Assembly (NCBI RefSeq): GCF_036507355.1
Contig: NZ_AP027877.1
Length of the DNA: 64,000 bases
Origin: Escherichia coli
GTDB taxonomy: Bacteria; Pseudomonadota; Gammaproteobacteria; Enterobacterales; Enterobacteriaceae
Strand: one strand, 5' to 3'
Position 1 is the stretch's first letter. Each line of letters starts with the position of its first letter. The notes under the pieces are model-generated. The model ran no database searches and had not been told where the DNA came from. It saw only the letters and a program-made list of their open reading frames with translations. Of the stretch, positions 2,271-63,126 are shown piece after piece. Position numbers and translations under genes: made by a program.

Positions 2271-2804
2271 ATGCGCCTGCTCCCTCTCGTTGCCGCAGCG
2301 ACAGCTGCATTTCTGGTCGTTGCCTGCAGTTCTCCTACGCCGCCGCGTGGCGTGACCGTAGTGAATAATTTCGACACCAAACGTTATCTCGGTACCTGGT
2401 ATGAGATTGCCCGTTTTGATCACCGCTTTGAACGTGGACTGGAAAAAGTCACCGCAACATACAGCCTGCGTGATGACGGCGGCCTGAATGTCATTAATAA
2501 AGGCTATAGCCCTGACAGAGGAATGTGGCAGCAGAGTGAAGGGAAAGCGTACTTTACCGGCGCACCAACTCGCGCTGCGCTGAAAGTGTCATTCTTTGGT
2601 CCTTTCTATGGCGGTTATAACGTTATTGCACTCGATCGGGAATACCACCATGCGCTGGTTTGCGGCCCGGACCGCGACTACCTGTGGATACTCTCCCGCA
2701 CGCCAACCATTTCTGACGAAGTGAAACAGGAGATGCTGGCAGTCGCGACCCGGGAAGGGTTTGATGTCAGTAAGTTTATTTGGGTACAGCAGCCCGGTAG
2801 TTAA
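2271..2804 (+). CDS. blc: Outer-membrane lipocalin Blc (177 aa)
   Basis: Track ORF 2271..2804; lipoprotein signal (LVVACSS lipobox) and lipocalin sequence recognised. Confidence 0.93.
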
Positions 2805-3118: not shown

Positions 3119-3298
3119 ATCAGGCTCCGGAGAATTGGGGCCGTCCCCGGTGAAAAGAGGCGTTTGCAGGTCGTCCTGCAAAGCTGATGGTTGAACGGAT
3201 ATTTTGCCAGGTGGCAGAGGAATTTCAACTATTACCTTTGTGACTATCGCAAAAAAACAAACGGCACGACACAGCTGTCGTACCGTTATTGCTTATTG

Positions 3299-4340: not shown

Positions 4341-5369
4341 ATGGCGCATATTGTAACCCTAAATACCCCATCCAGAGAAGATTGGTTAACGCAACTTGCC
4401 GATGTTGTGACCGATCCTGATGAACTTCTGCGTCTTTTGAATATAGACGCGGACGAAAAACTGTTGGCCGGACGCAGCGCCAAAAAGCTGTTTGCCCTGC
4501 GTGTGCCCCGCTCATTTATCGATCGCATGGAGAAAGGCAATCCGGACGATCCTCTTTTGCGTCAGGTACTTACCTCGCAAGATGAGTTTGTCGTCGCACC
4601 CGGATTCTCCACCGACCCACTGGAAGAACAGCACAGCGTAGTGCCTGGTTTGTTGCATAAATACCACAACCGGGCGCTTTTGCTGGTCAAAGGCGGCTGC
4701 GCGGTAAATTGCCGCTATTGCTTCCGTCGTCACTTCCCTTATGCCGAAAATCAGGGCAACAAGCGTAACTGGCAAACTGCACTTGAGTATGTTGCTGCGC
4801 ATCCGGAACTGGACGAGATGATTTTCTCCGGCGGCGATCCGCTGATGGCGAAAGATCACGAGCTGGACTGGTTGCTCACACAACTGGAAGCCATCCCGCA
4901 TATCAAACGTCTGCGGATTCACAGTCGTCTGCCGATTGTGATCCCGGCACGCATCACAGATGCGCTGGTTGAACGCTTTTCACATTCTACGCTGCAAATC
5001 TTGCTGGTGAATCACATCAACCATGCCAATGAGATAGATGAAACATTCCGTCAGGCGATGGCTAAGTTGCGCCGGGTAGGCGTTACTTTGCTGAACCAGA
5101 GCGTTCTGTTACGTGGTGTGAACGATAACGCACAAACGCTGGCAAACCTGAGTAATGCGTTGTTCGATGCCGGCGTAATGCCGTATTACCTGCATGTGCT
5201 CGATAAAGTACAGGGCGCGGCGCATTTTATGGTGAGTGATGACGAAGCACGGCAGATTATGCGTGAGTTGCTGACACTGGTATCGGGATATCTGGTGCCG
5301 AAACTGGCGCGAGAAATTGGCGGCGAACCCAGCAAAACGCCGCTGGATCTCCAGCTACGCCAGCAGTAA
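4341..5369 (+). CDS. epmB: EF-P beta-lysylation enzyme EpmB (lysine 2,3-aminomutase family, 342 aa)
   Basis: Track ORF 4341..5369; radical-SAM CxxxCxxC motif (CAVNCRYC); divergent from efp as in E. coli. Confidence 0.95.
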   Translation: MAHIVTLNTPSREDWLTQLADVVTDPDELLRLLNIDADEKLLAGRSAKKLFALRVPRSFIDRMEKGNPDDPLLRQVLTSQDEFVVAPGFSTDPLEEQHSVVPGLLHKYHNRALLLVKGGCAVNCRYCFRRHFPYAENQGNKRNWQTALEYVAAHPELDEMIFSGGDPLMAKDHELDWLLTQLEAIPHIKRLRIHSRLPIVIPARITDALVERFSHSTLQILLVNHINHANEIDETFRQAMAKLRRVGVTLLNQSVLLRGVNDNAQTLANLSNALFDAGVMPYYLHVLDKVQGAAHFMVSDDEARQIMRELLTLVSGYLVPKLAREIGGEPSKTPLDLQLRQQ

Positions 5370-5626: not shown

Positions 5627-5681
5627 GGTGATGCTGCCAACTTACTGATTTAGTGTATGATGGTGTTTTTGAGGTGCTCCA

Positions 5682-5957
5682 GTGGCTTCTGTTTCTATCA
5701 GCTGTCCCTCCTGTTCAGCTACTGACGGGGTGGTGCGTAACGGCAAAAGCACCGCCGGACATCAGCGCTATCTCTGCTCTCACTGCCGTAAAACATGGCA
5801 ACTGCAGTTCACTTACACCGCTTCTCAACCCGGTACGCACCAGAAAATCATTGATATGGCCATGAATGGCGTTGGATGCCGGGCAACAGCCCGCATTATG
5901 GGCATTGGCCTCAACACGATTTTACGTCACTTAAAAAACTCAGGCCGCAGTCGGTAA
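5682..5957 (+). CDS. insA: IS1 InsA (91 aa; GTG start)
   Basis: Track ORF 5682..5957; [40 protein letters not shown]... zinc-finger InsA. Confidence 0.9.
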
Positions 5958-6379
5958 CCTCGCGCATACAGCCGGGCAGTGACGTCATCGTCTGCGCGGA
6001 AATGGACGAACAGTGGGGCTATGTCGGGGCTAAATCGCGCCAGCGCTGGCTGTTTTACGCGTATGACAGGCTCCGGAAGACGGTTGTTGCGCACGTATTC
6101 GGTGAACGCACGATGGCGACGCTGGGGCGTCTTATGAGCCTGCTGTCACCCTTTGACGTGGTGATATGGATGACGGATGGCTGGCCGCTGTATGAATCCC
6201 GCCTGAAGGGAAAGCTGCACGTAATCAGCAAGCGATATACGCAGCGAATTGAGCGGCATAACCTGAATCTGAGGCAGCACCTGGCACGGCTGGGACGGAA
6301 GTCGCTGTCGTTCTCAAAATCGGTGGAGCTGCATGACAAAGTCATCGGGCATTATCTGAACATAAAACACTATCAATAA
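5876..6379 (+). CDS. insB: IS1 InsB reading frame (transposase made as InsAB' by -1 frameshift at the A6C motif near 5934-5940)
   Basis: Track ORF 5876..6379 in the -1 frame relative to insA; AAAAAAC slippery run in the overlap; C-terminal sequence typical of IS1 InsB. Confidence 0.85.
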
Positions 6380-6394
6380 GTTGGAGTCATTACC

Positions 6395-8093: not shown

Positions 8094-9761
<1,668 letters not shown>

Positions 9762-15417: not shown

Positions 15418-15756
15418 ATGCTTGATGAAAAAAGTTCGAATACCGCGTCTGTCGTGGTGCTATGTACCGCACCGGATGAAGCGACAGCCCAGGATTTAGC
15501 CGCCAAAGTGCTGGCGGAAAAACTGGCGGCCTGCGCGACCTTGATCCCCGGCGCTACCTCTCTCTATTACTGGGAAGGTAAGCTGGAGCAAGAATACGAA
15601 GTGCAGATGATTTTAAAAACTACCGTATCTCACCAGCAGGCACTGCTGGAATGCCTGAAGTCTCATCATCCATATCAAACCCCGGAACTTCTGGTTTTAC
15701 CTGTTACACACGGAGACACAGATTACCTCTCATGGCTCAACGCATCTTTACGCTGA
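15418..15756 (+). CDS. cutA: Divalent-cation tolerance protein CutA (112 aa)
   Basis: Within track ORF 15412..15756; start ATG 15418 ([57 protein letters not shown]...). Confidence 0.9.
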
Positions 15757-18147: not shown

Positions 18148-18223
18148 GCCCGGATAGCTCAGTCGGTAGAGCAGGGGATTGAAAATCCCCGTGTCCTTGG
18201 TTCGATTCCGAGTCCGGGCACCA
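18148..18223 (+). tRNA. pheU: tRNA-Phe (anticodon GAA), 76 nt with encoded CCA
   Basis: GCCCGGATAGCTCAGTCGGTAGAGCAGGGGATTGAAAATCCCCGTGTCCTTGGTTCGATTCCGAGTCCGGGCACCA; acceptor stem GCCCGGA/TCCGGGC, anticodon loop ATTGAAAAT, T-loop GGTTCGATTCC. Confidence 0.97.
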
Positions 18224-29112: not shown

Positions 29113-30744
29113 ATGAGACATTCATTGCCCTACCGCATGTTACGCAAACGTCCGATGAAATTGAGTACCACAGTGATCTTAATGGTCAGCGCGGTACTGT
29201 TCTCGGTGCTATTGGTGGTGCATCTGATTTACTTCTCGCAAATCAGTGATATGACGCGAGACGGGCTAGCCAACAAGGCACTGGCAGTGGCGCGTACTCT
29301 CGCCGACTCGCCGGAAATCCGTCAGGGCTTGCAGAAAAAACCGCAGGAGAGTGGAATCCAGGCCATCGCGGAAGCCGTGCGCAAACGCAACGATCTGCTG
29401 TTTATTGTCGTTACCGATATGCAAAGTCTTCGCTATTCGCATCCTGAAGCCCAGCGTATTGGTCAGCCATTTAAAGGTGATGACATCCTTAAGGCGCTGA
29501 ATGGCGAAGAAAATGTCGCTATCAATCGCGGTTTTCTGGCGCAGGCTTTACGCGTATTTACCCCCATCTACGATGAAAATCATAAACAAATTGGCGTGGT
29601 GGCGATCGGCCTTGAGTTAAGCCGCGTGACCCAACAGATCAATGACAGTCGCTGGAGCATTATCTGGTCAGTATTATTTGGCATGCTGGTCGGACTGATT
29701 GGCACCTGCATTCTGGTTAAAGTACTGAAAAAAATCCTTTTCGGCCTGGAACCCTACGAAATCTCCACGCTGTTTGAGCAACGCCAGGCCATGTTGCAGT
29801 CTATCAAAGAAGGCGTCGTTGCCGTGGACGATCGCGGCGAGGTCACGCTGATCAACGATGCCGCACAAGAATTGCTGAATTACCGTAAGTCGCAGGACGA
29901 TGAGAAACTGTCGACGCTAAGCCACTCGTGGTCACAGGTGGTAGATGTCTCGGAAGTGTTACGCGACGGTACCCCGCGCCGCGACGAAGAGATTACGATT
30001 AAAGATCGGCTATTACTGATCAACACCGTTCCGGTGCGCAGTAATGGCGTTATCATCGGTGCCATTTCAACCTTCAGGGACAAAACTGAAGTACGTAAAC
30101 TGATGCAGCGACTCGACGGTCTGGTCAACTATGCTGATGCACTTCGTGAACGATCCCACGAATTTATGAATAAATTGCATGTGATTCTCGGATTATTGCA
30201 TCTGAAGAGTTATAAGCAGTTGGAAGATTACATTCTCAAAACAGCCAATAACTATCAGGAAGAGATTGGCTCTCTGCTGGGTAAGATCAAATCTCCGGTT
30301 ATCGCTGGTTTTTTAATCAGCAAGATTAACCGCGCGACCGATTTAGGCCATACGCTGATTTTAAACAGTGAAAGCCAGCTGCCAGACAGCGGCAGTGAGG
30401 ACCAGGTCGCGACGCTGATTACCACATTGGGAAATCTGATAGAAAACGCGCTGGAAGCATTAGGGCCGGAACCCGGAGGCGAAATTAGCGTAACATTGCA
30501 CTACCGTCACGGCTGGCTGCACTGTGAAGTTAATGATGATGGACCGGGGATCGCACCCGATAAAATCGATCACATTTTTGACAAAGGTGTCTCGACAAAA
30601 GGAAGCGAGCGAGGCGTCGGTTTAGCACTTGTCAAACAACAGGTAGAAAATCTCGGCGGCAGCATCGCCGTGGAATCGGAACCCGGGATTTTCACACAAT
30701 TTTTTGTCCAGATACCCTGGGACGGGGAGAGGTCGAACAGATGA
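29113..30744 (+). CDS. dcuS: C4-dicarboxylate sensor histidine kinase DcuS (543 aa)
   Basis: Track ORF 29113..30744; periplasmic PAS sensor between two TM segments, cytoplasmic PAS and kinase domain. Confidence 0.95.
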   Translation: MRHSLPYRMLRKRPMKLSTTVILMVSAVLFSVLLVVHLIYFSQISDMTRDGLANKALAVARTLADSPEIRQGLQKKPQESGIQAIAEAVRKRNDLLFIVVTDMQSLRYSHPEAQRIGQPFKGDDILKALNGEENVAINRGFLAQALRVFTPIYDENHKQIGVVAIGLELSRVTQQINDSRWSIIWSVLFGMLVGLIGTCILVKVLKKILFGLEPYEISTLFEQRQAMLQSIKEGVVAVDDRGEVTLINDAAQELLNYRKSQDDEKLSTLSHSWSQVVDVSEVLRDGTPRRDEEITIKDRLLLINTVPVRSNGVIIGAISTFRDKTEVRKLMQRLDGLVNYADALRERSHEFMNKLHVILGLLHLKSYKQLEDYILKTANNYQEEIGSLLGKIKSPVIAGFLISKINRATDLGHTLILNSESQLPDSGSEDQVATLITTLGNLIENALEALGPEPGGEISVTLHYRHGWLHCEVNDDGPGIAPDKIDHIFDKGVSTKGSERGVGLALVKQQVENLGGSIAVESEPGIFTQFFVQIPWDGERSNR

Positions 30745-45184: not shown

Positions 45185-46828
45185 ATGTTGAAGCGCCTAC
45201 TAAAAAGACCCTCTTTGAATTTACTCGCCTGGCTATTGTTGGCCGCTTTTTATATCTCTATCTGCCTGAATATTGCCTTTTTTAAACAGGTGTTGCAGGC
45301 GCTGCCGCTGGACTCGCTGCATAACGTACTGGTTTTCTTGTCGATGCCGGTCGTCGCCTTCAGCGTGATTAATATTGTCCTGACACTAAGCTCTTTCTTA
45401 TGGCTTAATCGACCGCTGGCCTGCCTGTTTATTCTGGTTGGCGCGGCTGCACAATATTTCATAATGACTTACGGCATCGTCATCGACCGCTCGATGATTG
45501 CCAATATTATTGATACCACTCCGGCAGAAAGTTATGCGCTGATGACACCGCAAATGTTATTAACGCTGGGATTCAGCGGCGTGCTTGCTGCGCTGATTGC
45601 CTGCTGGATAAAAATCAAACCTGCCACCTCGCGTCTGCGCAGTGTTCTTTTCCGTGGAGCCAATATTCTGGTTTCTGTACTGCTGATTTTGCTGGTCGCC
45701 GCACTATTTTATAAAGACTACGCCTCGTTGTTCCGCAACAACAAAGAGCTGGTGAAGTCCTTAAGCCCCTCTAACAGCATTGTTGCCAGCTGGTCATGGT
45801 ACTCCCATCAGCGACTGGCAAATCTGCCGCTGGTGCGAATTGGTGAAGACGCGCACCGCAACCCGTTAATGCAGAACGAAAAACGTAAAAATTTGACCAT
45901 CCTGATTGTCGGCGAAACCTCGCGGGCGGAGAACTTCTCCCTCAACGGCTACCCGCGTGAAACTAACCCGCGGCTGGCGAAAGATAACGTGGTCTATTTC
46001 CCTAATACCGCATCTTGCGGCACGGCAACGGCAGTTTCAGTACCGTGCATGTTCTCGGATATGCCGCGAGAACACTACAAAGAAGAGCTGGCACAGCACC
46101 AGGAAGGCGTGCTGGATATCATTCAGCGAGCGGGCATCAACGTGCTGTGGAATGACAACGATGGTGGCTGTAAAGGTGCCTGCGACCGCGTGCCTCACCA
46201 GAACGTCACCGCGCTGAATCTGCCTGGTCAGTGCATCAACGGCGAATGCTATGACGAAGTGCTGTTCCACGGGCTGGAAGAGTACATCAATAACCTGCAG
46301 GGTGATGGCGTGATTGTCTTACACACCATCGGCAGCCACGGTCCGACCTATTACAACCGCTATCCGCCGCAGTTCAGGAAATTTACCCCAACCTGCGACA
46401 CCAATGAGATCCAGACCTGTACCAAAGAGCAACTGGTGAACACTTACGACAACACGCTGGTCTACGTCGACTATATTGTTGATAAAGCGATTAATCTGCT
46501 GAAAGAACATCAGGATAAATTTACCACCAGCCTGGTTTATCTTTCTGACCACGGTGAATCGTTAGGCGAAAATGGCATCTATCTGCACGGTCTGCCTTAT
46601 GCCATCGCCCCGGATAGCCAAAAACAGGTGCCAATGCTGCTGTGGCTGTCGGAGAATTATCAAAAACGGTATCAGGTTGACCAGAACTGCCTGCAAAAAC
46701 AGGCGCAAACACAACACTATTCACAAGACAATTTATTCTCCACGCTATTGGGATTAACTGGCGTTGAGACGAAGTATTACCAGGCTGCGGATGATATTCT
46801 GCAAACTTGCAGGAGAGTGAGTGAATGA
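45185..46828 (+). CDS. eptA: Lipid A phosphoethanolamine transferase EptA/PmrC (547 aa)
   Basis: Within track ORF 45140..46828; start placed at [29 protein letters not shown]...; N-terminal TM domain plus sulfatase-like periplasmic domain. Confidence 0.93.
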
Positions 46829-47493
46829 AAATTCTGATTGTTGAAGACGATACGCTGTTATTGCAGGGACTGATTCTGGCGGCGCAAACCGAAGGCTACG
46901 CGTGCGATGGCGTGACAACCGCGCGGATGGCGGAACAAAGCCTTGAGGCAGGTCATTACAGCCTGGTGGTACTGGATTTAGGGTTACCCGACGAAGATGG
47001 ACTGCATTTTCTCGCCCGTATCCGGCAGAAAAAATATACCCTGCCGGTACTGATCCTCACCGCTCGCGATACGCTGACCGACAAAATCGCCGGGCTGGAT
47101 GTCGGTGCCGATGACTATCTGGTGAAGCCTTTTGCGCTGGAAGAGTTACACGCCCGTATCCGCGCCCTGCTACGACGCCATAATAATCAGGGCGAAAGTG
47201 AGCTGATTGTTGGCAATCTGACGCTGAACATGGGTCGCCGTCAGGTATGGATGGGCGGTGAAGAGTTGATTCTGACGCCCAAAGAATATGCTCTGCTGTC
47301 ACGGTTAATGCTCAAAGCAGGCAGTCCGGTGCATCGGGAAATTCTCTACAACGACATCTATAACTGGGACAATGAACCCTCGACCAACACCCTGGAAGTG
47401 CATATCCACAATCTGCGCGACAAAGTGGGCAAAGCCCGTATCCGCACCGTGCGCGGCTTTGGCTATATGCTGGTCGCAAATGAGGAAAACTAA
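46825..47493 (+). CDS. basR: Response regulator BasR/PmrA (222 aa)
   Basis: Track ORF 46825..47493; [16 protein letters not shown]... OmpR-family; 4-bp overlap with eptA. Confidence 0.95.
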
Positions 47494-47502
47494 TTGAATC
47501 TG

Positions 47503-48594
47503 ATGCGTTTTCTGCGCCGACCAATATCGCTGCGCCAACGGCTGATATTGACCATCGGGGCCATTTTGTTGGTGTTTGAGCTGATCAGCGTCTTCTGGCT
47601 ATGGCATGAAAGTACCGAGCAGATTCAGCTGTTTGAGCAGGCGCTACGCGACAATCGCAACAACGATCGCCACATCATGCGTGAGATCCGCGAGGCGGTC
47701 GCCAGCCTGATTGTCCCCGGCGTCTTTATGGTCAGCCTGACGCTATTTATCTGCTATCAGGCGGTACGCCGCATCACCCGCCCGCTGGCGGAGCTGCAAA
47801 AAGAGCTGGAAGCGCGCACCGCCGACAACTTAACGCCCATTGCCATTCACAGCGCCACCCTCGAAATCGAAGCGGTGGTTTCGGCGTTGAACGATCTGGT
47901 CAGTCGCCTGACCAGCACGCTGGATAACGAAAGGTTATTTACCGCTGACGTCGCGCACGAACTGCGAACGCCACTGGCGGGGGTGCGTTTGCATCTGGAA
48001 CTGCTGGCGAAAACGCATCACATTGATGTAGCACCGTTAGTGGCACGGCTTGATCAGATGATGGAGAGCGTCTCCCAGCTGCTGCAACTGGCGCGTGCCG
48101 GACAGTCATTTTCTTCCGGTAATTATCAACATGTAAAACTGCTGGAAGATGTCATTCTCCCCTCGTATGACGAACTCAGTACCATGCTCGACCAGCGCCA
48201 GCAAACCCTGCTATTGCCAGAGAGCGCCGCCGACATCACCGTTCAGGGTGATGCAACCCTGCTGCGGATGTTATTGCGAAATCTGGTAGAAAATGCCCAT
48301 CGTTACAGCCCGCAAGGCAGCAACATTATGATTAAGCTGCAAGAAGATGGCGGAGCGGTCATGGCCGTTGAAGATGAAGGACCGGGTATTGATGAGAGTA
48401 AATGCGGGGAGTTGAGTAAAGCGTTTGTACGAATGGACAGCCGTTATGGCGGGATTGGTCTGGGGTTAAGTATTGTCAGCCGCATTACACAGTTGCATCA
48501 CGGGCAGTTTTTCCTGCAAAACCGGCAAGAGACTTCTGGCACGCGCGCCTGGATACGGCTGAAGAAAGATCAGTACGTGGCAAACCAGATATAA
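47503..48594 (+). CDS. basS: Sensor histidine kinase BasS/PmrB (363 aa)
   Basis: Within track ORF 47494..48594 (track starts at TTG); ATG 47503 gives MRFLRRPISLRQRLILTIGAILLVFELISVFWLWHES...; H-box HELRTPL. Confidence 0.92.
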   Translation: MRFLRRPISLRQRLILTIGAILLVFELISVFWLWHESTEQIQLFEQALRDNRNNDRHIMREIREAVASLIVPGVFMVSLTLFICYQAVRRITRPLAELQKELEARTADNLTPIAIHSATLEIEAVVSALNDLVSRLTSTLDNERLFTADVAHELRTPLAGVRLHLELLAKTHHIDVAPLVARLDQMMESVSQLLQLARAGQSFSSGNYQHVKLLEDVILPSYDELSTMLDQRQQTLLLPESAADITVQGDATLLRMLLRNLVENAHRYSPQGSNIMIKLQEDGGAVMAVEDEGPGIDESKCGELSKAFVRMDSRYGGIGLGLSIVSRITQLHHGQFFLQNRQETSGTRAWIRLKKDQYVANQI

Positions 48595-48659
48595 AGAAAG
48601 CTGCTGACCACCAGCACGCTGAACACGGTAGTTAAACTTTCATAAACACGGTTTTTCAT
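48570..48659 (-). CDS. pmrR: Small membrane protein PmrR (29 aa)
   Basis: Reverse-complement translation MKNRVYESLTTVFSVLVVSSFLYIWFATY*; GGAG RBS upstream; 3' end overlaps the last 25 nt of basS on the opposite strand. Confidence 0.8.
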   Translation of the reverse strand: MKNRVYESLTTVFSVLVVSSFLYIWFATY

Positions 48660-48773
48660 TGCACTCTCCTCCGTTAACCTGGAGGAGAGTATGCGCGTCA
48701 GAGATTAAGTGAACCTTAAGAGTTCAATTGTTGGTCTGATAAGACAGCGTCACATCAGGCCATCCGTTTCAGC

Positions 48774-50539: not shown

Positions 50540-51418
50540 TTACACTAAATTTACAGAGAAGATTTCCTCGAGCATTGCCCCCGCCAGACGCTGCGCTGAA
50601 CAGAGTCGTGGCATCCCCAGCGCGACAGTTTGCCAGCGTTGGGTCACTGACCAGCAAACGGGTTGTTTATCTGCCGTGGTCCACTTTCCCAGCCAACTTA
50701 AAAAATCAGCATGATCCCCGCCCGTCGGAACGGTCGAAGAGGCAAACCACTGATGGTAATAGTGACGCGTGGTCGGGGCCGCATTGATACTCTCTGCCAG
50801 ATGTTGTGTCGCTTTCACGCGCAAATCACCCAGCAACAACGCCACCGCTTGCGGGCTTCCCAGACGGCAGGCATCGCCAAATGCCCCCCAACGCAACTCT
50901 TCGAGAACGATAAAACAGCGCCCAGGCAACGACCAGGCGTTATACGCCCCAGCACGCCAGCGGGTAAAAATTTGCTCGCTCTGTTCACCTGCCTGCACCA
51001 GTAGGCCCCGTTGCGTTAACGCCTTTTCCTTCCAGCGACAACGGGCTGAAAACCACTCATACAAGGCGGCAATTTGCTGGGGGAGCTCCGGGAAAGCAGA
51101 GTGCTGGCGGTGATCCATTTTTTGCAGCAGCGCCAGATGTTGCGCGATCTGCGTCAGTGCCAGATGACCGGGATCCAGCATCGACGCCAGTTTTTCCACC
51201 AATGTCAAACGCAGGCTAAGCGGCGCATTTAACATTCCGCCGTTCGCCCATGTCTGAAGCTGCACGCGCGCAAGAAGTTCCTGCATCAGTCGTTCACGAA
51301 ACTGCTGCTGATGGGCTTGTGGAAGGCGGGCATCATCGCCCTGCGCCAGATCCACTAAAAAGCGCGGATGAACCGACTCCAGCACGCGACCGGGGCCGTC
51401 CAGTAACGTCTTGGTCAA
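50540..51418 (-). CDS. yjcZ: Uncharacterised protein YjcZ (292 aa)
   Basis: Track ORF 50540..51418(-); recognised as YjcZ; 4-bp overlap with upstream crfC. Confidence 0.85.
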   Translation of the reverse strand: MTKTLLDGPGRVLESVHPRFLVDLAQGDDARLPQAHQQQFRERLMQELLARVQLQTWANGGMLNAPLSLRLTLVEKLASMLDPGHLALTQIAQHLALLQKMDHRQHSAFPELPQQIAALYEWFSARCRWKEKALTQRGLLVQAGEQSEQIFTRWRAGAYNAWSLPGRCFIVLEELRWGAFGDACRLGSPQAVALLLGDLRVKATQHLAESINAAPTTRHYYHQWFASSTVPTGGDHADFLSWLGKWTTADKQPVCWSVTQRWQTVALGMPRLCSAQRLAGAMLEEIFSVNLV

Positions 51419-54392: not shown

Positions 54393-54545
<153 letters not shown>

Positions 54546-55183: not shown

Positions 55184-55972
55184 ATGCAAACGATTATCCG
55201 TGTCGAGAAGCTCGCCAAAACCTTCAATCAGCATCAGGCGCTGCATGCGGTTGATCTGAACATTCATCACGGTGAAATGGTGGCTCTGCTTGGGCCGTCG
55301 GGTTCCGGCAAATCCACCCTTTTACGTCACTTAAGCGGCCTGATTGTCGGCGATAAAAAACCAGAATGCCGCGTCGAACTGCTGGGCCGTACCGTCCAGC
55401 AAAATGGCCGTCTGGCCCGCGATATCCGCAAAAGCCGCGCCCATACCGGCTACATCTTCCAACAATTCAACCTGGTGAATCGCCTGAGCGTACTGGAGAA
55501 CGTGCTGATTGGCGCGCTCGGCAGCACGCCGTTCTGGCGCACCTGTTTTAGCTACTTCACCCGCGAGCAGAAACAGCGCGCGTTACAGGCGCTGACCCGC
55601 GTTGGCATGGTGCATTTTGCCCATCAACGCGTTTCCACCCTCTCCGGCGGCCAGCAGCAGCGTGTGGCGATTGCCCGCGCGCTGATGCAGCAGGCGAAAG
55701 TGATTCTCGCAGACGAACCGATCGCCTCGCTGGACCCGGAATCGGCGCGCATCGTGATGGACACCCTGCGCGACATCAACCAGAACGACGGCATCACCGT
55801 GGTCGTCACGCTGCATCAGGTGGATTACGCCCTGCGCTACTGCGAGCGCATCGTCGCCCTGCGTCAGGGGCACGTCTTCTACGACGGCAGCAGCCAACAG
55901 TTTGATAACGAACGTTTTGACCATCTCTACCGCAGCATTAACCGCGTCGAAGAGAACGCGAAAGCTGCCTGA
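55184..55972 (+). CDS. phnC: Phosphonate ABC transporter ATP-binding protein PhnC (262 aa)
   Basis: Track ORF 55184..55972; Walker [10 protein letters not shown], signature LSGGQQQR. Confidence 0.95.
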
Positions 55973-55996
55973 CATCCCCATCATTGAGGAAAACGA

Positions 55997-57013
55997 ATGA
56001 ACGCTAAGATAATTGCCTCGCTGGCCTTCACCAGCATGTTCAGCCTCAGCACCCTGTTTAGCCCGGCGCACGCCGAGGAGCAGGAAAAGGCGCTGAATTT
56101 CGGCATTATTTCAACGGAATCACAGCAAAACCTGAAACCGCAATGGACGCCGTTTTTACAGGATATGGAGAAGAAGCTGGGCGTGAAGGTCAACGCCTTC
56201 TTTGCCCCGGACTACGCGGGCATTATCCAGGGAATGCGTTTCAACAAAGTGGATATCGCCTGGTACGGCAACCTGTCGGCGATGGAAGCAGTGGATCGCG
56301 CCAACGGTCAGGTCTTCGCTCAGACCGTCGCGGCGGATGGATCGCCGGGTTACTGGAGCGTGTTAATCGTCAACAAAGACAGCCCGATCAACAACCTGAG
56401 CGATCTGCTGGCGAAGCGGAAAGATCTCACCTTCGGCAATGGCGATCCTAACTCCACCTCTGGCTTCCTCGTCCCCGGCTACTACGTCTTCGCCAAAAAC
56501 AATATCTCCGCCAGCGACTTCAAGCGCACCGTCAACGCCGGGTATGAAACCAACGCGCTGGCCGTCGCCAACAAGCAGGTGGATGTGGCGACCAACAACA
56601 CCGAAAACCTCGACAAGCTGAAAACCTCCGCACCGGACAAGCTCAAAGAACTGAAAGTGATCTGGAAGTCGCCGCTGATCCCAGGCGATCCGATCGTCTG
56701 GCGCAAGAATCTTTCCGAAACCACCAAAGACAAGATCTACGACTTCTTTATGAACTACGGCAAAACGCCGGAAGAAAAAGCGGTGCTGGAACGCCTGGGC
56801 TGGGCGCCGTTCCGCGCTTCCAGCGACCTGCAACTGGTGTCGATTCGCCAGCTCGCGCTGTTTAAAGAGATGCAGGGCGTGAAAAGCAATAAAGGACTGA
56901 ATGAGCAGGACAAGCTGGCAAAAACCACCGAGATTCAGGCGCAGCTGGATGACCTGGACCGCCTGAACAACGCGCTAAGCGCGATGAGTTCGGTGAGTAA
57001 AGCGGTGCAGTAA
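55997..57013 (+). CDS. phnD: Phosphonate ABC transporter periplasmic binding protein PhnD (338 aa)
   Basis: Track ORF 55997..57013; signal peptide then binding-protein fold. Confidence 0.95.
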   Translation: MNAKIIASLAFTSMFSLSTLFSPAHAEEQEKALNFGIISTESQQNLKPQWTPFLQDMEKKLGVKVNAFFAPDYAGIIQGMRFNKVDIAWYGNLSAMEAVDRANGQVFAQTVAADGSPGYWSVLIVNKDSPINNLSDLLAKRKDLTFGNGDPNSTSGFLVPGYYVFAKNNISASDFKRTVNAGYETNALAVANKQVDVATNNTENLDKLKTSAPDKLKELKVIWKSPLIPGDPIVWRKNLSETTKDKIYDFFMNYGKTPEEKAVLERLGWAPFRASSDLQLVSIRQLALFKEMQGVKSNKGLNEQDKLAKTTEIQAQLDDLDRLNNALSAMSSVSKAVQ

Positions 57014-57015
57014 AT

Positions 57016-57105
57016 CGTAGGTCGGATAAGACGCCCCGGCGTCGCATCCGACAATGTGCAGGCGTTGATGCCGGATGCGGTGCAAGCACCTTATCCGGCC
57101 TACAG
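57016..57105. repeat. REP/BIME element
   Basis: GTAGGTCGGATAAGACGCCCCGGCGTCGCATCCGACA ... GATGCCGGATGCGGTGCAAGCACCTTATCCGGCCTAC; boundaries approximate. Confidence 0.65.
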
Positions 57106-57118
57106 ACCGGAGCCAAAC

Positions 57119-57898
57119 ATGCAAACCATCACCATCGCCCCACCCAAGCGCAGCTGGTTCTCGCTTCTGAGCTGGGCCGTTGTTCTCGCCGTGTTGGTCG
57201 TCTCGTGGCAGGGCGCGGAAATGGCCCCGCTCACGCTGATTAAAGACGGCGGCAACATGGCGACTTTCGCCGCCGACTTCTTCCCGCCTGATTTCAGCCA
57301 GTGGCAGGATTACCTCACCGAAATGGCCGTCACGCTGCAAATCGCCGTCTGGGGCACCGCGCTGGCGGTGGTTCTCTCCATCCCCTTCGGCCTGATGAGC
57401 GCCGAAAACCTGGTGCCGTGGTGGGTTTACCAGCCCGTTCGCCGCCTGATGGACGCCTGCCGCGCCATTAACGAAATGGTCTTCGCCATGCTGTTCGTGG
57501 TCGCCGTCGGCCTCGGCCCGTTCGCTGGCGTGTTGGCGCTGTTTATCCACACCACCGGCGTGCTCTCCAAACTGCTTTCCGAAGCGGTGGAAGCGATTGA
57601 ACCCGGCCCGGTGGAAGGCATTCGCGCGACCGGCGCTAACAAGCTCGAAGAGATCCTCTACGGCGTGCTGCCGCAGGTGATGCCGCTGCTGATCTCCTAC
57701 TCCCTCTATCGCTTCGAATCCAACGTCCGCTCGGCGACCGTCGTCGGCATGGTCGGCGCGGGCGGGATCGGCGTCACGCTGTGGGAAGCGATTCGCGGTT
57801 TCCAGTTCCAGCAAACCTGCGCCCTGATGGTGCTCATCATCGTCACGGTCAGCCTGCTGGATTTCCTCTCTCAACGGTTGCGTAAGCACTTTATCTGA
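57119..57898 (+). CDS. phnE: Phosphonate ABC transporter permease PhnE, uninterrupted (259 aa)
   Basis: Within track ORF 57056..57898 (upstream part is REP read-through); start ATG 57119 ([28 protein letters not shown]...); continuous single frame. Confidence 0.9.
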
Positions 57899-57918
57899 TT
57901 AGCGAGGCATTGATAGCT

Positions 57919-58644
57919 ATGCACTTGTCTACACATCCGACCAGCTACCCAACACGCTATCAGGAGATAGCCGCAAAACTTGAGCAGGAGCTTCGTCAAC
58001 ACTACCGCTGCGGCGACTATCTTCCCGCCGAGCAGCAGCTGGCGGCGCGCTTTGAGGTAAACCGCCACACCCTGCGCCGCGCCATCGACCAACTGGTGGA
58101 AAAAGGCTGGGTACAGCGCCGTCAGGGCGTCGGCGTGCTGGTGCTGATGCGCCCGTTCGATTACCCGCTCAACGCCCAGGCGCGTTTTAGCCAGAATCTG
58201 CTGGATCAGGGCAGCCATCCCACCAGCGAAAAACTGCTGTCGGTGCTGCGCCCGGCGTCTGGTCACGTCGCTGACGCGCTGGGGATAACCGAGGGGGAGA
58301 ACGTCATCCACCTGCGCACCCTGCGCCGGGTCAACGGCGTCGCGCTCTGTTTAATCGACCACTACTTTGCGGACCTCACCCTCTGGCCGACGCTGCAACG
58401 CTTCGACAGCGGTTCGCTGCACGATTTTCTGCGCGAGCAAACGGGAATTGCGCTGCGCCGCAGCCAGACGCGGATCAGCGCCCGCCGCGCCCAAGCCAAA
58501 GAGTGCCAGCGCCTTGAAATCCCGAATATGTCGCCGCTGCTGTGCGTGCGCACCCTTAACCACCGTGACGGTGAAAGCAGCCCGGCGGAGTATTCCGTCA
58601 GCCTGACGCGCGCCGACATGATTGAATTCACTATGGAGCACTGA
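57919..58644 (+). CDS. phnF: GntR-family repressor PhnF (241 aa)
   Basis: Within track ORF 57910..58644; start placed at MHLSTHPTSYPTRYQEIAAKL...; N-terminal GntR HTH, UTRA-like C-domain. Confidence 0.93.
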   Translation: MHLSTHPTSYPTRYQEIAAKLEQELRQHYRCGDYLPAEQQLAARFEVNRHTLRRAIDQLVEKGWVQRRQGVGVLVLMRPFDYPLNAQARFSQNLLDQGSHPTSEKLLSVLRPASGHVADALGITEGENVIHLRTLRRVNGVALCLIDHYFADLTLWPTLQRFDSGSLHDFLREQTGIALRRSQTRISARRAQAKECQRLEIPNMSPLLCVRTLNHRDGESSPAEYSVSLTRADMIEFTMEH

Positions 58645-59097
58645 ATGCACGCAGATACCGCGACCCGCCAGCACTGGATGTCCGTGCTGGCGCACAGCCA
58701 ACCGACTGAGCTGGCAGCCCGCCTGAACGCGCTGAACATCACCGCCGACTATGAAGTGATCCGCACCGCCGAAACTGGTCTGGTGCAGATTCAGGCGCGG
58801 ATGGGCGGCACCGGCGAACGCTTTTTTGCCGGCGACGCCACGCTCACCCGCGCCGCCGTACGCCTGACTGACGGCACGCTCGGCTACAGCTGGGTGCTGG
58901 GGCGCGACAAACAGCACGCCGAACGCTGCGCGCTGATTGACGCGCTGATGCAGCAATCTCGCCACTTTCAAAACTTATCAGAAACTCTTATTGCCCCGCT
59001 GGACGCTGACCGTATGGCACGCATTGCCGCACGCCAGGCCGAAGTGAACGCCAGCCGGGTCGACTTCTTTACGATGGTTCGCGGAGACAACGCATGA
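58645..59097 (+). CDS. phnG: C-P lyase core complex subunit PhnG (150 aa)
   Basis: Track ORF 58645..59097; recognised PhnG sequence. Confidence 0.95.
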
Positions 59098-59678
59098 CCC
59101 TGGAAACCGCTTTTATGCTTCCCGTGCAGGATGCCCAGCACAGTTTTCGTCGCCTGTTAAAGGCCATGAGCGAGCCGGGCGTGATTGTCGCCCTGCATCA
59201 GCTCAAACGCGGCTGGCAGCCGCTGAATATCGCCACCACCAGCGTGCTGCTGACGCTGGCTGATAACGACACGCCGGTGTGGCTTGCCGCGCCATTAAGT
59301 AACGATATCGTCAGCCAGAGCCTGCGTTTTCATACCAACGCGCCGCTGGTCAATCAACCGGAACAGGCGACCTTCGCGGTGACGGATGAGACGATTTCCA
59401 GCGAACAGCTCAACGCCCTTTCCACCGGCACCGCCGTTGCGCCAGAAGCGGGCGCGACGCTGATTTTACAGGTCGCCAGCCTGAGCGGCGGGCGCATGTT
59501 GCGCCTCACCGGTGCGGGTATTGCCGAAGAACGAATGATCGCTCCGCAGCTGCCGGAGTGCATTTTGCACGAACTCACCGAGCGCCCGCACCCGTTCCCG
59601 CTCGGCATCGACCTGATCCTGACCTGCGGCGAGCGCCTGCTGGCTGTTCCGCGAACCACTCATGTGGAGGTGTGCTGA
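59094..59678 (+). CDS. phnH: C-P lyase core complex subunit PhnH (194 aa)
   Basis: Track ORF 59094..59678; 4-bp overlap with phnG. Confidence 0.95.
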
Positions 59679-60742
59679 TGTACGTTGCCGTGAAAGGGGG
59701 CGAGAAGGCGATCGACGCCGCCCACGCCCTGCAAGAGAGCCGACGCCGGGGCGATACCGATTTGCCCGAACTGAGCGTCGCCCAGATTGAACAGCAGCTT
59801 AACCTCGCGGTAGATCGCGTGATGACCGAAGGCGGCATTGCCGACCGCGAACTGGCGGCGCTGGCGCTGAAACAGGCCAGCGGCGATAACGTCGAAGCGA
59901 TTTTTCTGCTGCGCGCCTACCGCACCACGCTGGCGAAGCTGGCGGTGAGCGAACCGCTCGACACCACCGGGATGCGTCTCGAACGGCGTATCTCCGCTGT
60001 TTATAAAGATATTCCCGGCGGCCAACTGCTTGGCCCAACCTACGACTACACCCATCGCCTGCTCGATTTCACCCTGCTGGCAAACGGCGAAGCGCCAACG
60101 CTGACCACCGCCGACAGCGAACAACAGCCGTCGCCGCACGTTTTCAGCCTGCTTGCGCGTCAGGGGCTGGCGAAGTTTGAAGAGGATAGCGGCGCACAGC
60201 CGGATGACATCACCCGCACGCCGCCGGTTTACCCCTGCTCACGTTCTTCCCGTTTGCAGCAGTTGATGCGCGGCGACGAAGGCTATTTGCTGGCGCTGGC
60301 CTACTCCACCCAACGCGGTTACGGGCGCAATCACCCGTTCGCGGGTGAAATCCGCAGTGGTTACATCGACGTGTCGATTGTGCCGGAAGAGCTGGGATTT
60401 GCGGTAAACGTCGGCGAACTGCTGATGACCGAGTGTGAAATGGTCAACGGTTTTATCGATCCGCCGGATGAACCACCGCATTTTACACGCGGCTACGGGC
60501 TGGTGTTCGGCATGAGCGAGCGCAAAGCGATGGCAATGGCGCTAGTCGATCGTGCGTTGCAGGCCCCGGAGTACGGCGAGCACGCGACAGGCCCGGCGCA
60601 GGATGAAGAGTTCGTGCTGGCGCATGCCGACAACGTCGAAGCCGCAGGCTTTGTCTCGCACCTCAAACTCCCGCACTACGTCGATTTCCAGGCCGAACTG
60701 GAGCTACTCAAACGTCTGCAACAGGAGCAGAACCATGGCTAA
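59678..60742 (+). CDS. phnI: C-P lyase core complex subunit PhnI (354 aa)
   Basis: Within track ORF 59558..60742; start ATG 59678 ([32 protein letters not shown]...); 1-bp overlap with the phnH stop. Confidence 0.95.
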   Translation: MYVAVKGGEKAIDAAHALQESRRRGDTDLPELSVAQIEQQLNLAVDRVMTEGGIADRELAALALKQASGDNVEAIFLLRAYRTTLAKLAVSEPLDTTGMRLERRISAVYKDIPGGQLLGPTYDYTHRLLDFTLLANGEAPTLTTADSEQQPSPHVFSLLARQGLAKFEEDSGAQPDDITRTPPVYPCSRSSRLQQLMRGDEGYLLALAYSTQRGYGRNHPFAGEIRSGYIDVSIVPEELGFAVNVGELLMTECEMVNGFIDPPDEPPHFTRGYGLVFGMSERKAMAMALVDRALQAPEYGEHATGPAQDEEFVLAHADNVEAAGFVSHLKLPHYVDFQAELELLKRLQQEQNHG

Positions 60743-61580
60743 TCTGAGCGGCTACAACTTTGCCTACCTCGACGAGCAGACCAAACGCATGATCCGCCGC
60801 GCCATCTTAAAAGCGGTGGCGATCCCCGGTTATCAGGTGCCGTTTGGCGGGCGCGAGATGCCGATGCCGTACGGCTGGGGAACCGGCGGCATACAGCTTA
60901 CCGCCAGCGTGATTGGCGAAAGCGACGTACTGAAGGTGATTGACCAGGGAGCGGATGACACCACCAACGCCGTGTCGATTCGCAACTTCTTCAAGCGCGT
61001 GACCGGGGTAAACACCACGGAACGTACGGACGATGCGACGGTTATCCAGACGCGTCACCGCATCCCCGAAACGCCGCTGACCGAAGATCAGATCATTATT
61101 TTCCAGGTGCCGATCCCCGAACCGCTGCGCTTTATCGAGCCGCGCGAAACGGAAACCCGCACCATGCACGCGCTGGAGGAGTACGGCGTGATGCAGGTGA
61201 AACTGTATGAAGATATCGCCCGCTTCGGTCATATCGCCACCACCTACGCCTATCCGGTGAAGGTGAACGGGCGCTACGTGATGGACCCGTCGCCGATCCC
61301 GAAATTCGATAACCCGAAAATGGACATGATGCCTGCCCTGCAGCTGTTCGGCGCGGGGCGCGAAAAGCGCATCTATGCGGTGCCACCGTTTACCCGCGTT
61401 GAAAGTCTCGATTTCGAGGATCACCCGTTCACCGTTCAGCAGTGGGATGAGCCATGCGCCATCTGCGGATCGACCCACAGCTATCTCGATGAAGTGGTGC
61501 TGGATGACGCCGGAAACCGCATGTTTGTCTGCTCCGATACCGATTATTGCCGCCAACAGAGCGAGGCAAAAAGCCAATGA
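60735..61580 (+). CDS. phnJ: Alpha-D-ribose 1-methylphosphonate 5-phosphate C-P lyase PhnJ (281 aa)
   Basis: Within track ORF 60552..61580; start ATG 60735 (MANLSGYNFAYLDEQTKRMIRRAILKAVAIPGYQVPFGGREMPMPYGWGTGG...); C-terminal Cys cluster CAICGS...CSDTDYC for the 4Fe-4S site. Confidence 0.95.
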   Translation: MANLSGYNFAYLDEQTKRMIRRAILKAVAIPGYQVPFGGREMPMPYGWGTGGIQLTASVIGESDVLKVIDQGADDTTNAVSIRNFFKRVTGVNTTERTDDATVIQTRHRIPETPLTEDQIIIFQVPIPEPLRFIEPRETETRTMHALEEYGVMQVKLYEDIARFGHIATTYAYPVKVNGRYVMDPSPIPKFDNPKMDMMPALQLFGAGREKRIYAVPPFTRVESLDFEDHPFTVQQWDEPCAICGSTHSYLDEVVLDDAGNRMFVCSDTDYCRQQSEAKSQ

Positions 61581-62335
61581 ATCAACCGTTACTTTCGGTC
61601 AATAACCTGACCCACCTTTACGCGCCGGGCAAAGGCTTTAGCGATGTCTCTTTTGATTTATGGCCGGGGGAAGTGCTGGGCATTGTCGGGGAGTCCGGCT
61701 CCGGGAAGACCACGCTGCTGAAATCAATCTCCGCGCGCCTGACGCCGCAGCAGGGGGAAATTCACTACGAGAACCGTTCGCTGTATGCAATGAGCGAGGC
61801 CGACCGCCGTCGCCTGCTGCGCACCGAATGGGGCGTGGTGCATCAGCATCCGCTCGACGGCCTGCGCCGCCAGGTCTCAGCAGGCGGCAACATCGGCGAG
61901 CGGCTGATGGCGACCGGGGCGCGTCATTACGGCGATATTCGCGCCACCGCGCAGAAGTGGCTGGAAGAGGTGGAAATTCCCGCCAACCGGATCGACGACC
62001 TGCCGACCACCTTTTCCGGCGGCATGCAGCAACGTTTGCAGATTGCCCGCAACCTGGTGACGCATCCGAAGCTGGTATTTATGGACGAGCCAACCGGCGG
62101 GCTGGATGTGTCGGTGCAGGCCCGCCTGCTCGACCTGCTGCGCGGCCTGGTGGTGGAGCTGAACCTGGCGGTGGTTATTGTCACCCATGATTTAGGCGTC
62201 GCCCGCCTGCTGGCGGACCGTTTGCTGGTGATGAAGCAGGGGCAAGTGGTGGAGAGTGGGTTAACCGACCGCGTGCTCGACGACCCGCATCATCCGTATA
62301 CACAGCTGCTGGTGTCATCGGTTTTGCAGAATTGA
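61577..62335 (+). CDS. phnK: C-P lyase-associated ATP-binding protein PhnK (252 aa)
   Basis: Within track ORF 61547..62335; start ATG 61577 ([15 protein letters not shown]...); Walker [10 protein letters not shown]. Confidence 0.95.
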
Positions 62336-62338
62336 GCC

Positions 62339-62425
62339 GGTGCCGGATGCGGCGTAAACGCCTTATCCTGCCTACAAATGCGCTCCCCGTAGGTCGGATA
62401 AGACGCGTCAGCGTCGCATCCGACA
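62339..62425. repeat. REP/BIME element
   Basis: GCCGGATGCGGCGTAAACGCCTTATCCTGCCTAC ... GTAGGTCGGATAAGACGCGTCAGCGTCGCATCCGACA; boundaries approximate. Confidence 0.65.
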
Positions 62426-62445
62426 CCCGAACCACGAGGCGAAAA

Positions 62446-63126
62446 ATGATTAACGTACAAAACGTCAGTAAAACCTTCATCCTGCACCAGCAAAACGGCG
62501 TGCGCCTGCCCGTCCTCAACCGCGCCTCGCTCACCGTCAACGCGGGCGAATGCGTGGTGCTCCACGGCCATTCCGGCAGCGGAAAATCAACCCTGCTACG
62601 CTCGCTGTACGCCAACTATCTGCCCGACGAAGGGCAAATCCAGATCAAACACGGTGACGAATGGGTCGATCTGGTCACCGCGCCAGCGCGCAAAGTGGTG
62701 GAGATCCGCAAAACCACCGTTGGCTGGGTGAGCCAGTTTCTGCGCGTCATCCCGCGCATTTCGGCGCTGGAAGTGGTGATGCAGCCGCTACTCGATACCG
62801 GCGTACCACGTGAAGCCTGCGCCGCTAAAGCCGCGCGTCTTCTCACCCGCCTGAACGTGCCGGAACGCCTGTGGCACCTGGCTCCATCGACCTTCTCCGG
62901 CGGCGAACAGCAGCGCGTCAACATCGCCCGCGGCTTTATCGTCGACTACCCCATTCTGCTGCTCGACGAACCTACCGCCTCGCTGGACGCCAAAAACAGC
63001 GCCGCGGTGGTGGAACTGATTCACGAAGCCAAAGCCCGTGGCGCAGCCATTGTCGGCATCTTCCATGACGAAGCCGTACGTAATGACGTTGCCGACCGCC
63101 TGCACCCAATGGGAGCCTCTTCATGA
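62446..63126 (+). CDS. phnL: C-P lyase-associated ATP-binding protein PhnL (226 aa)
   Basis: Within track ORF 62332..63126 (upstream part is REP read-through); start ATG 62446 ([25 protein letters not shown]...); Walker [10 protein letters not shown]. Confidence 0.95.

Follow-up and report, generated by a model that had tools for sequence, protein, structure and literature searches.

It is very probable that the stop/start overlaps in the analyzed window, i.e., the whole 64,000-nt stretch of the Escherichia coli chromosome extending from frdB to phnM, are nothing unusual and belong to the three types of operon junction most frequent in prokaryotes, NTGA (-4), TGATG (-1) and NTGNNTAA (-8), that the start codons forming them are right, and that the strength of each site sets the amounts of protein. 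Translational coupling is possible at spacings from -4 to 0, but a fixed stoichiometry does not follow from such spacings.

The gene map was carried over from two annotated E. coli genomes, and the letters of the junctions were then read directly. In the transferred map, coding sequences are intact throughout the window, and phnG, H, I, J, K, L and M have the order and encode the known proteins of the E. coli-type C-P lyase operon; phnM is truncated by the window end. The phnE gene, which is frameshifted in K-12, is uninterrupted here. A long antisense ORF opposite phnJ (60810-61577, minus strand) has no family match and was regarded as a by-product of the coding sequence. Direct reading confirmed the stop/start overlap motifs (NTGA, TGATG, NTGNNTRR) at all nine junctions (Table 1). 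The gene identities proposed in the initial annotation were right, according to the transferred map and to PDB and NCBIfam matches, and the overlaps that it listed (phnG/phnH, phnH/phnI, phnJ/phnK, phnL/phnM, dcuS/dcuR, eptA/basR, crfC/yjcZ and cutA/dsbD) are all exact. Its list was incomplete, in that the 8-nt overlap of phnI and phnJ and the abutting pairs phnF/phnG and basR/pmrB were omitted, and the span assigned to it, 59094-63126, covers phnH to phnL only, the remaining junctions being elsewhere in the window. We agree that the junctions are expected biology, i.e., normal, well-known bacterial operon packing.

Table 1. Genes, junctions and spacer, in order of their positions in the window (SD, Shine-Dalgarno sequence; SD energies are duplex energies).
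Feature	Position	Strand	Description
cutA/dsbD overlap	15732..15756	+	25 nt
dcuS/dcuR junction	30741..30744	+	ATGA, -4; dcuR SD -8.7 kcal/mol
eptA/basR junction	46825..46828	+	ATGA, -4
basR/pmrB abutment	47491-47496	+	TAATTG, 0 nt
crfC/yjcZ (now rdcB) junction	51415..51418	-	TTGA, -4; TTG start, weak SD
phnF/phnG abutment	58642-58647	+	TGAATG, 0 nt between phnF stop and phnG start
phnG	58645..59097	+	150 aa; NCBIfam TIGR03293 equivalog
phnG/phnH junction	59094..59097	+	ATGA, -4; GGAG SD 8 nt upstream, -6.6 kcal/mol
phnH	59094..59678	+	194 aa; PDB 7Z15_B and 4XB6_B, residues 1-194; TIGR03292
phnH/phnI junction	59676..59680	+	TGATG, -1; common base 59678
phnI	59678..60742	+	354 aa; PDB 7Z15_C match, residues 1-354
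phnI/phnJ junction	60735..60742	+	ATGGCTAA, -8; AGGAG SD
phnJ	60735..61580	+	281 aa; PDB 4XB6_D match, residues 1-281
phnJ/phnK junction	61577..61580	+	ATGA, -4
phnK	61577..62335	+	252 aa; PDB 7Z15_I, residues 1-252; TIGR02323
phnK-phnL spacer	62336..62445	+	110 nt; inverted REP pair (BIME), long hairpin 1 nt past phnK stop
phnL	62446..63126	+	226 aa; PDB 7Z15_K, residues 1-226; TIGR02324
phnL/phnM junction	63123..63126	+	ATGA, -4; NF011981 profile 1-292 on PhnM residues 1-292

Neighboring co-directional genes lie within +/-30 nt of each other in 17 pairs, 6 of which have a spacing of exactly -4 (P ~2e-7 under uniform spacing). This excess is the genome-wide norm and no peculiarity of the window; NTGA (-4), -1 and -8 are the top three enriched spacings across all prokaryotes (PMC12548453), and the ~12 of ~49 co-directional pairs in the window that are spaced by -8 to +10 agree with the E. 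coli genome-wide count of 820 such pairs (PMC10666635). In E. coli reporter studies, -4, -1, -8 and 0 fall within the most efficient coupling range, and a spacing of -25 gave no coupling in systematic constructs (PMC12548453). Eight junctions and the two abutting pairs are spaced within the coupling range of about -4 to +3 nt; cutA/dsbD (-25) and phnK/phnL (+110) lie outside it.

The phn junctions were compared among 11 annotated loci from bacteria and one archaeon, with spacings that depend on predicted, annotated starts (the Citrobacter phnJ start was corrected manually). Taken together, the G/H, H/I, I/J and J/K junctions overlap in 39 of 44 cases and lie within +4 nt in 43 of 44, compared to 4 of 10 for K/L (Fisher p = 5e-5, for loci that are not phylogenetically independent). 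The phnJ/phnK overlap is present in all 11 loci, and the I/J spacing differs by locus (-8, -11, -4, -1, -17). The K/L spacing is -4 in Variovorax and Haloarcula and drifts to values between +9 and +110, and phnL overlaps the following gene, which can be phnM, phnN, an acetyltransferase gene or an MFS transporter gene, in 9 of 10 loci. On this comparison, tightly packed phnG-H-I-J-K genes are an ancient arrangement that has been conserved.

The annotated start codons are placed correctly, as judged from evidence independent of the overlaps. It should be noted that support of the starts by the overlaps themselves, as proposed in the initial annotation, is a circular argument, and that the starts nevertheless prove correct by N-termini, PDB chains, profiles and SD sequences. 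The phn N-termini are conserved in an alignment of 11 loci that come from one archaeon and from bacteria of several phyla. PhnH, I, J, K and L are identical from residue 1 to the chains of solved E. coli C-P lyase structures (4XB6, 7Z15-7Z19), the complexes having been expressed from plasmids with the native polycistronic phnGHIJK or phnGHIJKLMNOP DNA (PMC9947105). NCBIfam profiles, which are equivalogs for PhnG, H, K, L and M, start 0-6 residues from the chosen N-termini, and position 1 of TIGR02324 falls on residue 1 of PhnL. Each phn start tops the scoring of its in-frame candidates, with SD duplexes of -5.6 to -13.1 kcal/mol compared to a background median of -2.5 kcal/mol; the GGAGG of phnI (-13.1 kcal/mol) is the strongest SD of the window. 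PhnI contains the conserved motif M(G)YVAVKGGE from residue 2, so that any usable phnI start would have to overlap phnH, and the annotated phnJ start is the only one that retains the conserved YNFAYLDE. Outside phn, the dcuR start at ATGA is the sole in-frame start keeping the receiver-domain N-terminus MINVLIIDDD, residues 1-11 of RdcB are conserved between genera (overall identity 55-62%), and the dsbD ATG begins a signal-peptide-like N-terminus (MAQRIFTL...), the one other in-frame candidate being located 81 nt upstream with a weaker SD. When all in-frame alternative starts of 12 downstream genes were listed, none was better supported than the annotated start.

The claim that the junctions imply translational coupling stands in part: the spacings suit coupling, which they permit and do not imply, and the -25 spacing of cutA/dsbD is that of uncoupled constructs. 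Judging from the spacings, actual coupling is probable at these junctions. Since each downstream phn cistron has its own SD inside the 3' end of the preceding gene, ordinary 30S initiation at each downstream SD would be the most likely route; according to the literature, E. coli prefers de novo initiation to re-initiation. A ribosome ending the upstream gene would help by melting the local structure and by keeping a ribosome nearby, and termination-reinitiation may contribute in part. Expression would be coordinated along phnF-K and along phnL-P, and protein amounts would be governed by the strength of each site and not by the overlap. The energy predicted for opening the start region showed no significant difference between tight pairs and the remaining starts (median 9.8 versus 9.3 kcal/mol, p = 0.29) and resembled that of random coding sequence only at phnH (16.4), phnK (15.1) and phnI (13.6); thus, occlusion of ribosome-binding sites has no general signature here, and these energies are not usable as evidence for an RNA-unfolding model. 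The literature searched contained no direct statements on phn translational coupling.

Fixed stoichiometry, which the initial annotation took to be implied as well, does not follow from the overlaps. Whatever gene comes next is overlapped by phnL, and eptA and basR encode an enzyme and a regulator. Sensor kinases are reportedly far less abundant than their regulators. EnvZ is present at ~50 dimers per cell, and sensor/regulator pairs are transient partners that are far from equimolar (PMC6023141); furthermore, among the E. coli pairs with close spacing, 69.6% do not encode a complex (PMC10666635). Stable equimolar partners are PhnG, H, I and J and, in some states, K and L (PMC9947105), and not the products of eptA/basR, phnF/phnG and phnL/phnM. 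The proposed match with the PhnGHIJ complex is sound insofar as this is a defined hetero-octamer, Phn(GHIJ)2 (PMC9947105), and the conserved tight packing of G-H-I-J-K fits co-expression of this core and possibly co-translational assembly; however, PhnL, which is likewise equimolar in Phn(GHIJKL)2 (PMC9947105), is encoded by a gene that starts 110 nt away from phnK in E. coli.

Strict termination-reinitiation, as implied by the initial annotation, in which the same ribosome restarts at the overlap and a fixed, near 1:1 output determines the subunit ratios of PhnGHIJ and those within the sensor/regulator pairs, appears improbable. Such a mechanism would require no scanning at the -4 and -1 overlaps, it agrees with the equimolar Phn(GHIJ)2 core, and reinitiation was found to be steeply distance-dependent in three native E. 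coli pairs (PMC10666635). Furthermore, at a single junction here, that of rdcB, reinitiation seems to be required, as this gene starts with TTG and has next to no SD (-2.8 kcal/mol). Against it, every downstream phn cistron has its own SD, genes of non-partners overlap too (phnL with its various neighbors, eptA with basR), the equimolar partner PhnL is encoded beyond a 110-nt gap, regulators far outnumber sensor kinases, and the -25 constructs were uncoupled.

We consider another possibility very unlikely, namely that genome compaction and the easy origin of NTGA produced the overlaps as a neutral by-product with no role in coordinating expression. Three of the four bases of NTGA are already given by the start codon, and the abundance of -4 probably reflects its ease of evolving (PMC12548453); the exact geometry drifts at I/J, and overlaps are present whether or not the proteins are partners. 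Nevertheless, tightness is kept at all but one of the core junctions in bacteria and the archaeon, whereas K/L drifts, and in E. coli close spacing shows a 4.5-fold enrichment for heteromeric-complex subunits (PMC10666635). The possibility that one or more starts are mis-set and an alternative is used, so that some overlaps are annotation artefacts, is scarcely credible. Mechanical ORFs reach upstream of phnI, phnJ, phnK and phnL, the phnL frame is open up to a TTG (62332) that would form an additional TTGA overlap with the phnK stop, phnH contains an in-frame ATG at +21, and the rdcB GTG at +33 has a better SD. However, the upstream extensions occur in no homologue: extension of PhnL from TTG 62332 is translated REP, the in-frame ATG at 62347 is within REP sequence as well, and the profile begins at residue 1. 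The downstream alternatives would cost conserved residues (YNFAYLDE of PhnJ; L5, L6, G8, P9 and R11 of RdcB, which the GTG would remove), and the phnH ATG is missing in Citrobacter, where residue 8 is N and not M. The chosen residues are those at which the PDB chains and the NCBIfam profiles begin.

The run of phn overlaps is interrupted by the phnK-phnL spacer, the inverted arms of which are located at 62339-62361 / 62405-62427 and at 62359-62375 / 62389-62405. Its RNA fold has an energy of -55.6 kcal/mol (z = -5.7 compared to shuffles). The spacer is non-coding and consists of an inverted pair of imperfect palindromes (GCCGGATG...CATCCGGC type, ~35 nt each), as is characteristic of REP/BIME elements; the gathering score of Rfam naRNA4 was reached by the related spacers 57020-57100 and 54398-54474 and not by the phnK-phnL spacer. 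REP-like DNA is present at the phnK/phnL junction of Citrobacter, too. REP/BIME elements occur between cistrons of operons, e.g., malE-malF, and a REP near a stop codon reportedly reduces upstream translation. It is conceivable, although doubtful, that the phnK hairpin is a functional divider and not passive filler, separating the overlapping-cistron blocks phnF-K and phnL-P. In this case, the BIME would uncouple phnL from phnK, shield the upstream mRNA against 3' decay, and hinder termination, reducing PhnK output, which could account for the isolation of complexes with one PhnK per Phn(GHIJ)2. The REP-like DNA of Citrobacter and the loose K/L spacing in most taxa are compatible with a divider.

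These results are of little importance beyond annotation quality, although the gene starts in the window are confirmed to be sound. An overlap is a sign of co-expression and, probably, of coupling between two genes; neither the ratio of their proteins nor a partnership can be read from it. The tight G-H-I-J-K packing versus the loose K/L spacing is a small, usable hint for the expression of C-P lyase from native operon DNA.

The overlap junctions described here are already known. They have the same NTGA / TGATG / NTGNNTGA spacings (-4, -1, -8, 0) as spatially coupled ORFs (Brown & Wade 2025, PMC12548453; Huber et al. 2019, 2023), with which they share an SD inside the upstream coding sequence, the operon setting and several pairs encoding complex subunits, and from which they do not differ. 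Compared to the E. coli phnCDEFGHIJKLMNOP operon, which encodes the complexes Phn(GHIJ)2, Phn(GHIJ)2K and Phn(GHIJKL)2 (PMC9947105), the genes have the same order, and their proteins agree in length and N-terminus; at the DNA level, identity to other E. coli is 92-99.8%. The present operon is an allele at the level of the strain, and its divergence is mosaic along its length. As in intercistronic REP/BIME systems, the phnK-phnL and phnD-phnE spacers are alike in being inverted REP pairs, the phnK hairpin beginning 1 nt after the stop codon. The ompR-envZ operon is, in the account of Liljestrom et al. 1988 given in PMC12548453, a classic -4 coupled two-component operon. Spacings in dcuS/dcuR and eptA/basR/pmrB are likewise -4 or 0 between signalling genes; unlike in ompR-envZ, the kinase gene comes first in dcuSR, and the gene ahead of the regulator in eptA-basRS encodes an enzyme.

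We read all same-strand junctions of the window directly from the sequence, using a gene map onto which the annotation of two reference E. coli genomes had been carried over (frdB to phnM, about 60 genes, all intact, with only frdB and phnM cut by the window ends). Every overlap claimed in the initial annotation, i.e., those at phnG/phnH, phnH/phnI, phnJ/phnK, phnL/phnM, dcuS/dcuR, eptA/basR, crfC/yjcZ and cutA/dsbD, was borne out. It did not mention the phnI/phnJ overlap, the zero spacers at phnF/phnG and basR/pmrB, or the 110-nt gap between phnK and phnL. Among the 17 co-directional pairs of the window spaced within +/-30 nt, 6 are spaced at exactly -4 (P about 2e-7 under uniform spacing); thus, the junction pattern is non-random. 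About 12 of 49 pairs in the window are closely spaced, a usual proportion in E. coli (PMC10666635). The overlap of the IS1 frames insA and insB' is of another kind (programmed frameshift) and was not among the claimed junctions.

Junctions, spacers and other features of the window (negative spacing, overlap in nt)
Feature	Position	Strand	Spacing	Remark
phnG/phnH	59094-59097		-4	ATGA
phnH/phnI	59676-59680		-1	TGATG
phnI/phnJ	60735-60742		-8	ATGGCTAA
phnJ/phnK	61577-61580		-4	ATGA
phnL/phnM	63123-63126		-4	ATGA
dcuS/dcuR	30741-30744		-4	ATGA
eptA/basR	46825-46828		-4	ATGA
crfC/yjcZ (now rdcB)	51415-51418	minus	-4	TTGA
cutA/dsbD	15732-15756		-25	
phnK-phnL spacer	62336-62445			REP pair (BIME), inverted units
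phnD-phnE spacer	57020-57100	minus		REP-type; Rfam naRNA4 above gathering score
yjdM-yjdN spacer	54398-54474	plus		REP-type; Rfam naRNA4 above gathering score
blc/sugE, convergent	2801-2804			common TTAA contains both stop codons
Guanidine-II (mini-ykkC) riboswitch	3136-3182	minus		5' of sugE
IS1	5627-6394			768 bp, 23-bp inverted ends; between epmB and yjeJ
insA/insB' overlap	5876-5957			82 nt; A6C slippery site at 5933
groL 3' end	8094-8120	minus		groL 9 nt longer than in reference genome
tRNA gene	18148-18220	plus		tRNA-Phe per reference annotation; in 798-nt yjdC-cadC gap
pmrR/pmrB, convergent	48570-48594			small gene pmrR antisense to final 25 nt of pmrB
STnc630 (Rfam)	48563-48728	minus		match covers pmrR
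Open frame antisense to phnJ	60810-61577	minus		256 codons

The overlaps had also been taken as support for the chosen start codons. This argument is circular, and the starts were therefore tested without the overlaps. For each downstream gene, in-frame ATG, GTG and TTG candidates, from the previous stop to 60 nt forward, were scored by pairing with the 16S 3' end. The annotated phn starts form duplexes of -5.6 to -13.1 kcal/mol, compared to a background median of -2.5, and each is the best or only sensible candidate. The E. coli PhnG-L N-termini line up with homologues from ten further phn operons, taken from plasmid records (Citrobacter, Sinorhizobium, Variovorax, Paracoccus, Thiothrix, Marinobacter, a Proteus plasmid, Mesobacillus, Thermus and the archaeon Haloarcula). 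PhnI opens with M(G)YVAVKGGE in every aligned locus, so that any usable phnI start overlaps phnH; YNFAYLDE is kept in PhnJ only from the ATG at 60735, and in all species aligned PhnL opens with strand one of its ATPase fold. From residue 1 through the end, PhnH, I, J, K and L agree with their chains in the C-P lyase structures 4XB6 and 7Z15-7Z19, and these complexes were produced from plasmids with native polycistronic DNA (PMC9947105). NCBIfam equivalog profiles of PhnG, H, K, L and M start 0-6 residues from the chosen N-termini. The weakest-supported start is the TTG of rdcB, with a Shine-Dalgarno duplex of only -2.8 kcal/mol; it is upheld by residues L5, L6, G8, P9 and R11, (nearly) invariant across genera at an overall identity of 55-62%, which rule out a GTG 33 nt downstream. 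At the level of sequence, the chosen start codons are confirmed on these independent grounds. The frame opposite phnJ, for which no family was found in NCBIfam, is probably a by-product of coding-strand composition.

Junction spacings in the E. coli operon and the ten further operons were taken from annotated coordinates, with one start corrected. The annotated Citrobacter freundii phnJ start (plasmid NZ_CP151862.1; 4492-4549 in the numbering of the locus compared) lies 46 nt past the phnI stop and loses the N-terminus YNFAYLDEQTK, whereas a GTG at 4492, with AGGAGG upstream, restores the conserved motif and overlaps phnI by 11 nt; the public record is probably wrong here. At phnG/H, H/I, I/J and J/K, 39 of 44 junctions overlap and 43 lie within +4 nt, compared to just 4 of 10 within +4 nt at phnK/L (Fisher p = 5e-5). 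The core genes thus have a tight packing that is ancient and has been retained, while its exact geometry drifts. In 9 of 10 loci, the stop codon of phnL overlaps the start of the following gene, be it phnM, phnN, an acetyltransferase gene or one for an MFS transporter.

In the window, the phnL frame has no stop within the 110-nt gap and extends upstream as far as a TTG, which together with the phnK stop reads TTGA. A longer PhnL from this TTG was rejected, the gap being a pair of inverted REP units, which folds into a hairpin of -55.6 kcal/mol (z = -5.7 compared to shuffles), its onset one base past the phnK stop. REP-like DNA is also found at the Citrobacter phnK/L junction, whereas Variovorax and Haloarcula have a plain -4 overlap; in E. 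coli, a repeat element thus breaks the overlap chain. Directly 3' of phnK, the BIME may tune PhnK output or mRNA stability. The family matched by the other two spacers, naRNA4, is a REP-derived nucleoid-associated RNA (Rfam), and the yjdM-yjdN gap exceeds that of the reference genome by about 70 nt.

Of 5,426 complete E. coli genomes, 5,382 match the stretch 59094-63126, which is phnH-phnL of the operon for phosphonate C-P lyase, with identities of up to 97.6%. The remainder of the window matches E. coli at 98-99%. Relative to the best-matching genome, identity along phn (55184-63126) is a mosaic (phnC 92.5%, phnG 95.8%, phnI 99.8%, phnJ/K/L about 96.6-97.1%), which suggests recombination among phn alleles; genes beyond the operon are mostly about 99% identical. 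The phnE gene (57119-57898) is an unbroken frame of 259 codons, unlike that of laboratory K-12, frameshifted through an 8-bp duplication, and this strain should therefore have a functional phosphonate transporter, as predicted from the frame. Elsewhere, the epmB-yjeJ arrangement with IS1 is matched in one piece by just 18 of the 5,426 genomes, and the GroL C-terminal GGM repeat has one additional Gly-Gly-Met unit compared to the reference genome.

The initial annotation further held that such junctions imply translational coupling and fixed stoichiometry, and described the C-P lyase core as a defined multi-subunit complex. The latter holds, Phn(GHIJ)2 being a defined hetero-octamer (PMC9947105). 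The spacings also fall in the range at which E. coli genes are coupled most efficiently (PMC12548453), and complex subunits are 4.5-fold enriched for close spacing (PMC10666635). Fixed stoichiometry, however, is overstated, because 69.6% of the E. coli pairs with close spacing do not code for a complex (PMC10666635), tight junctions here join non-partners (eptA/basR, phnF/G, phnL/M), and phnL is the one cistron not overlapped by the gene before it, although PhnL is equimolar in Phn(GHIJKL)2. Sensor kinases, moreover, are much rarer than their regulators. The regulator OmpR is present in thousands per cell. Its kinase EnvZ numbers about 50 dimers per cell (PMC6023141). Systematic constructs showed no coupling at -25, the cutA/dsbD spacing (PMC12548453), and recycling factor depletion left neighbouring-gene ratios unchanged, overlapping pairs included (PMC7538156), which favours de novo initiation. 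The energy to open positions -18 to +12, computed as a proxy for start-site occlusion, did not differ significantly between tight pairs and the remaining starts (9.8 versus 9.3 kcal/mol, p = 0.29); only the phnH, phnK and phnI start regions look as structured as random coding sequence. The interpretation as a whole is thus partly supported. The overlaps themselves are textbook operon architecture, already known, in an E. coli operon that has been studied in depth; -4, -1 and -8 are the three spacings enriched across all prokaryotes (PMC12548453), and the overlap pattern here is this universal one.
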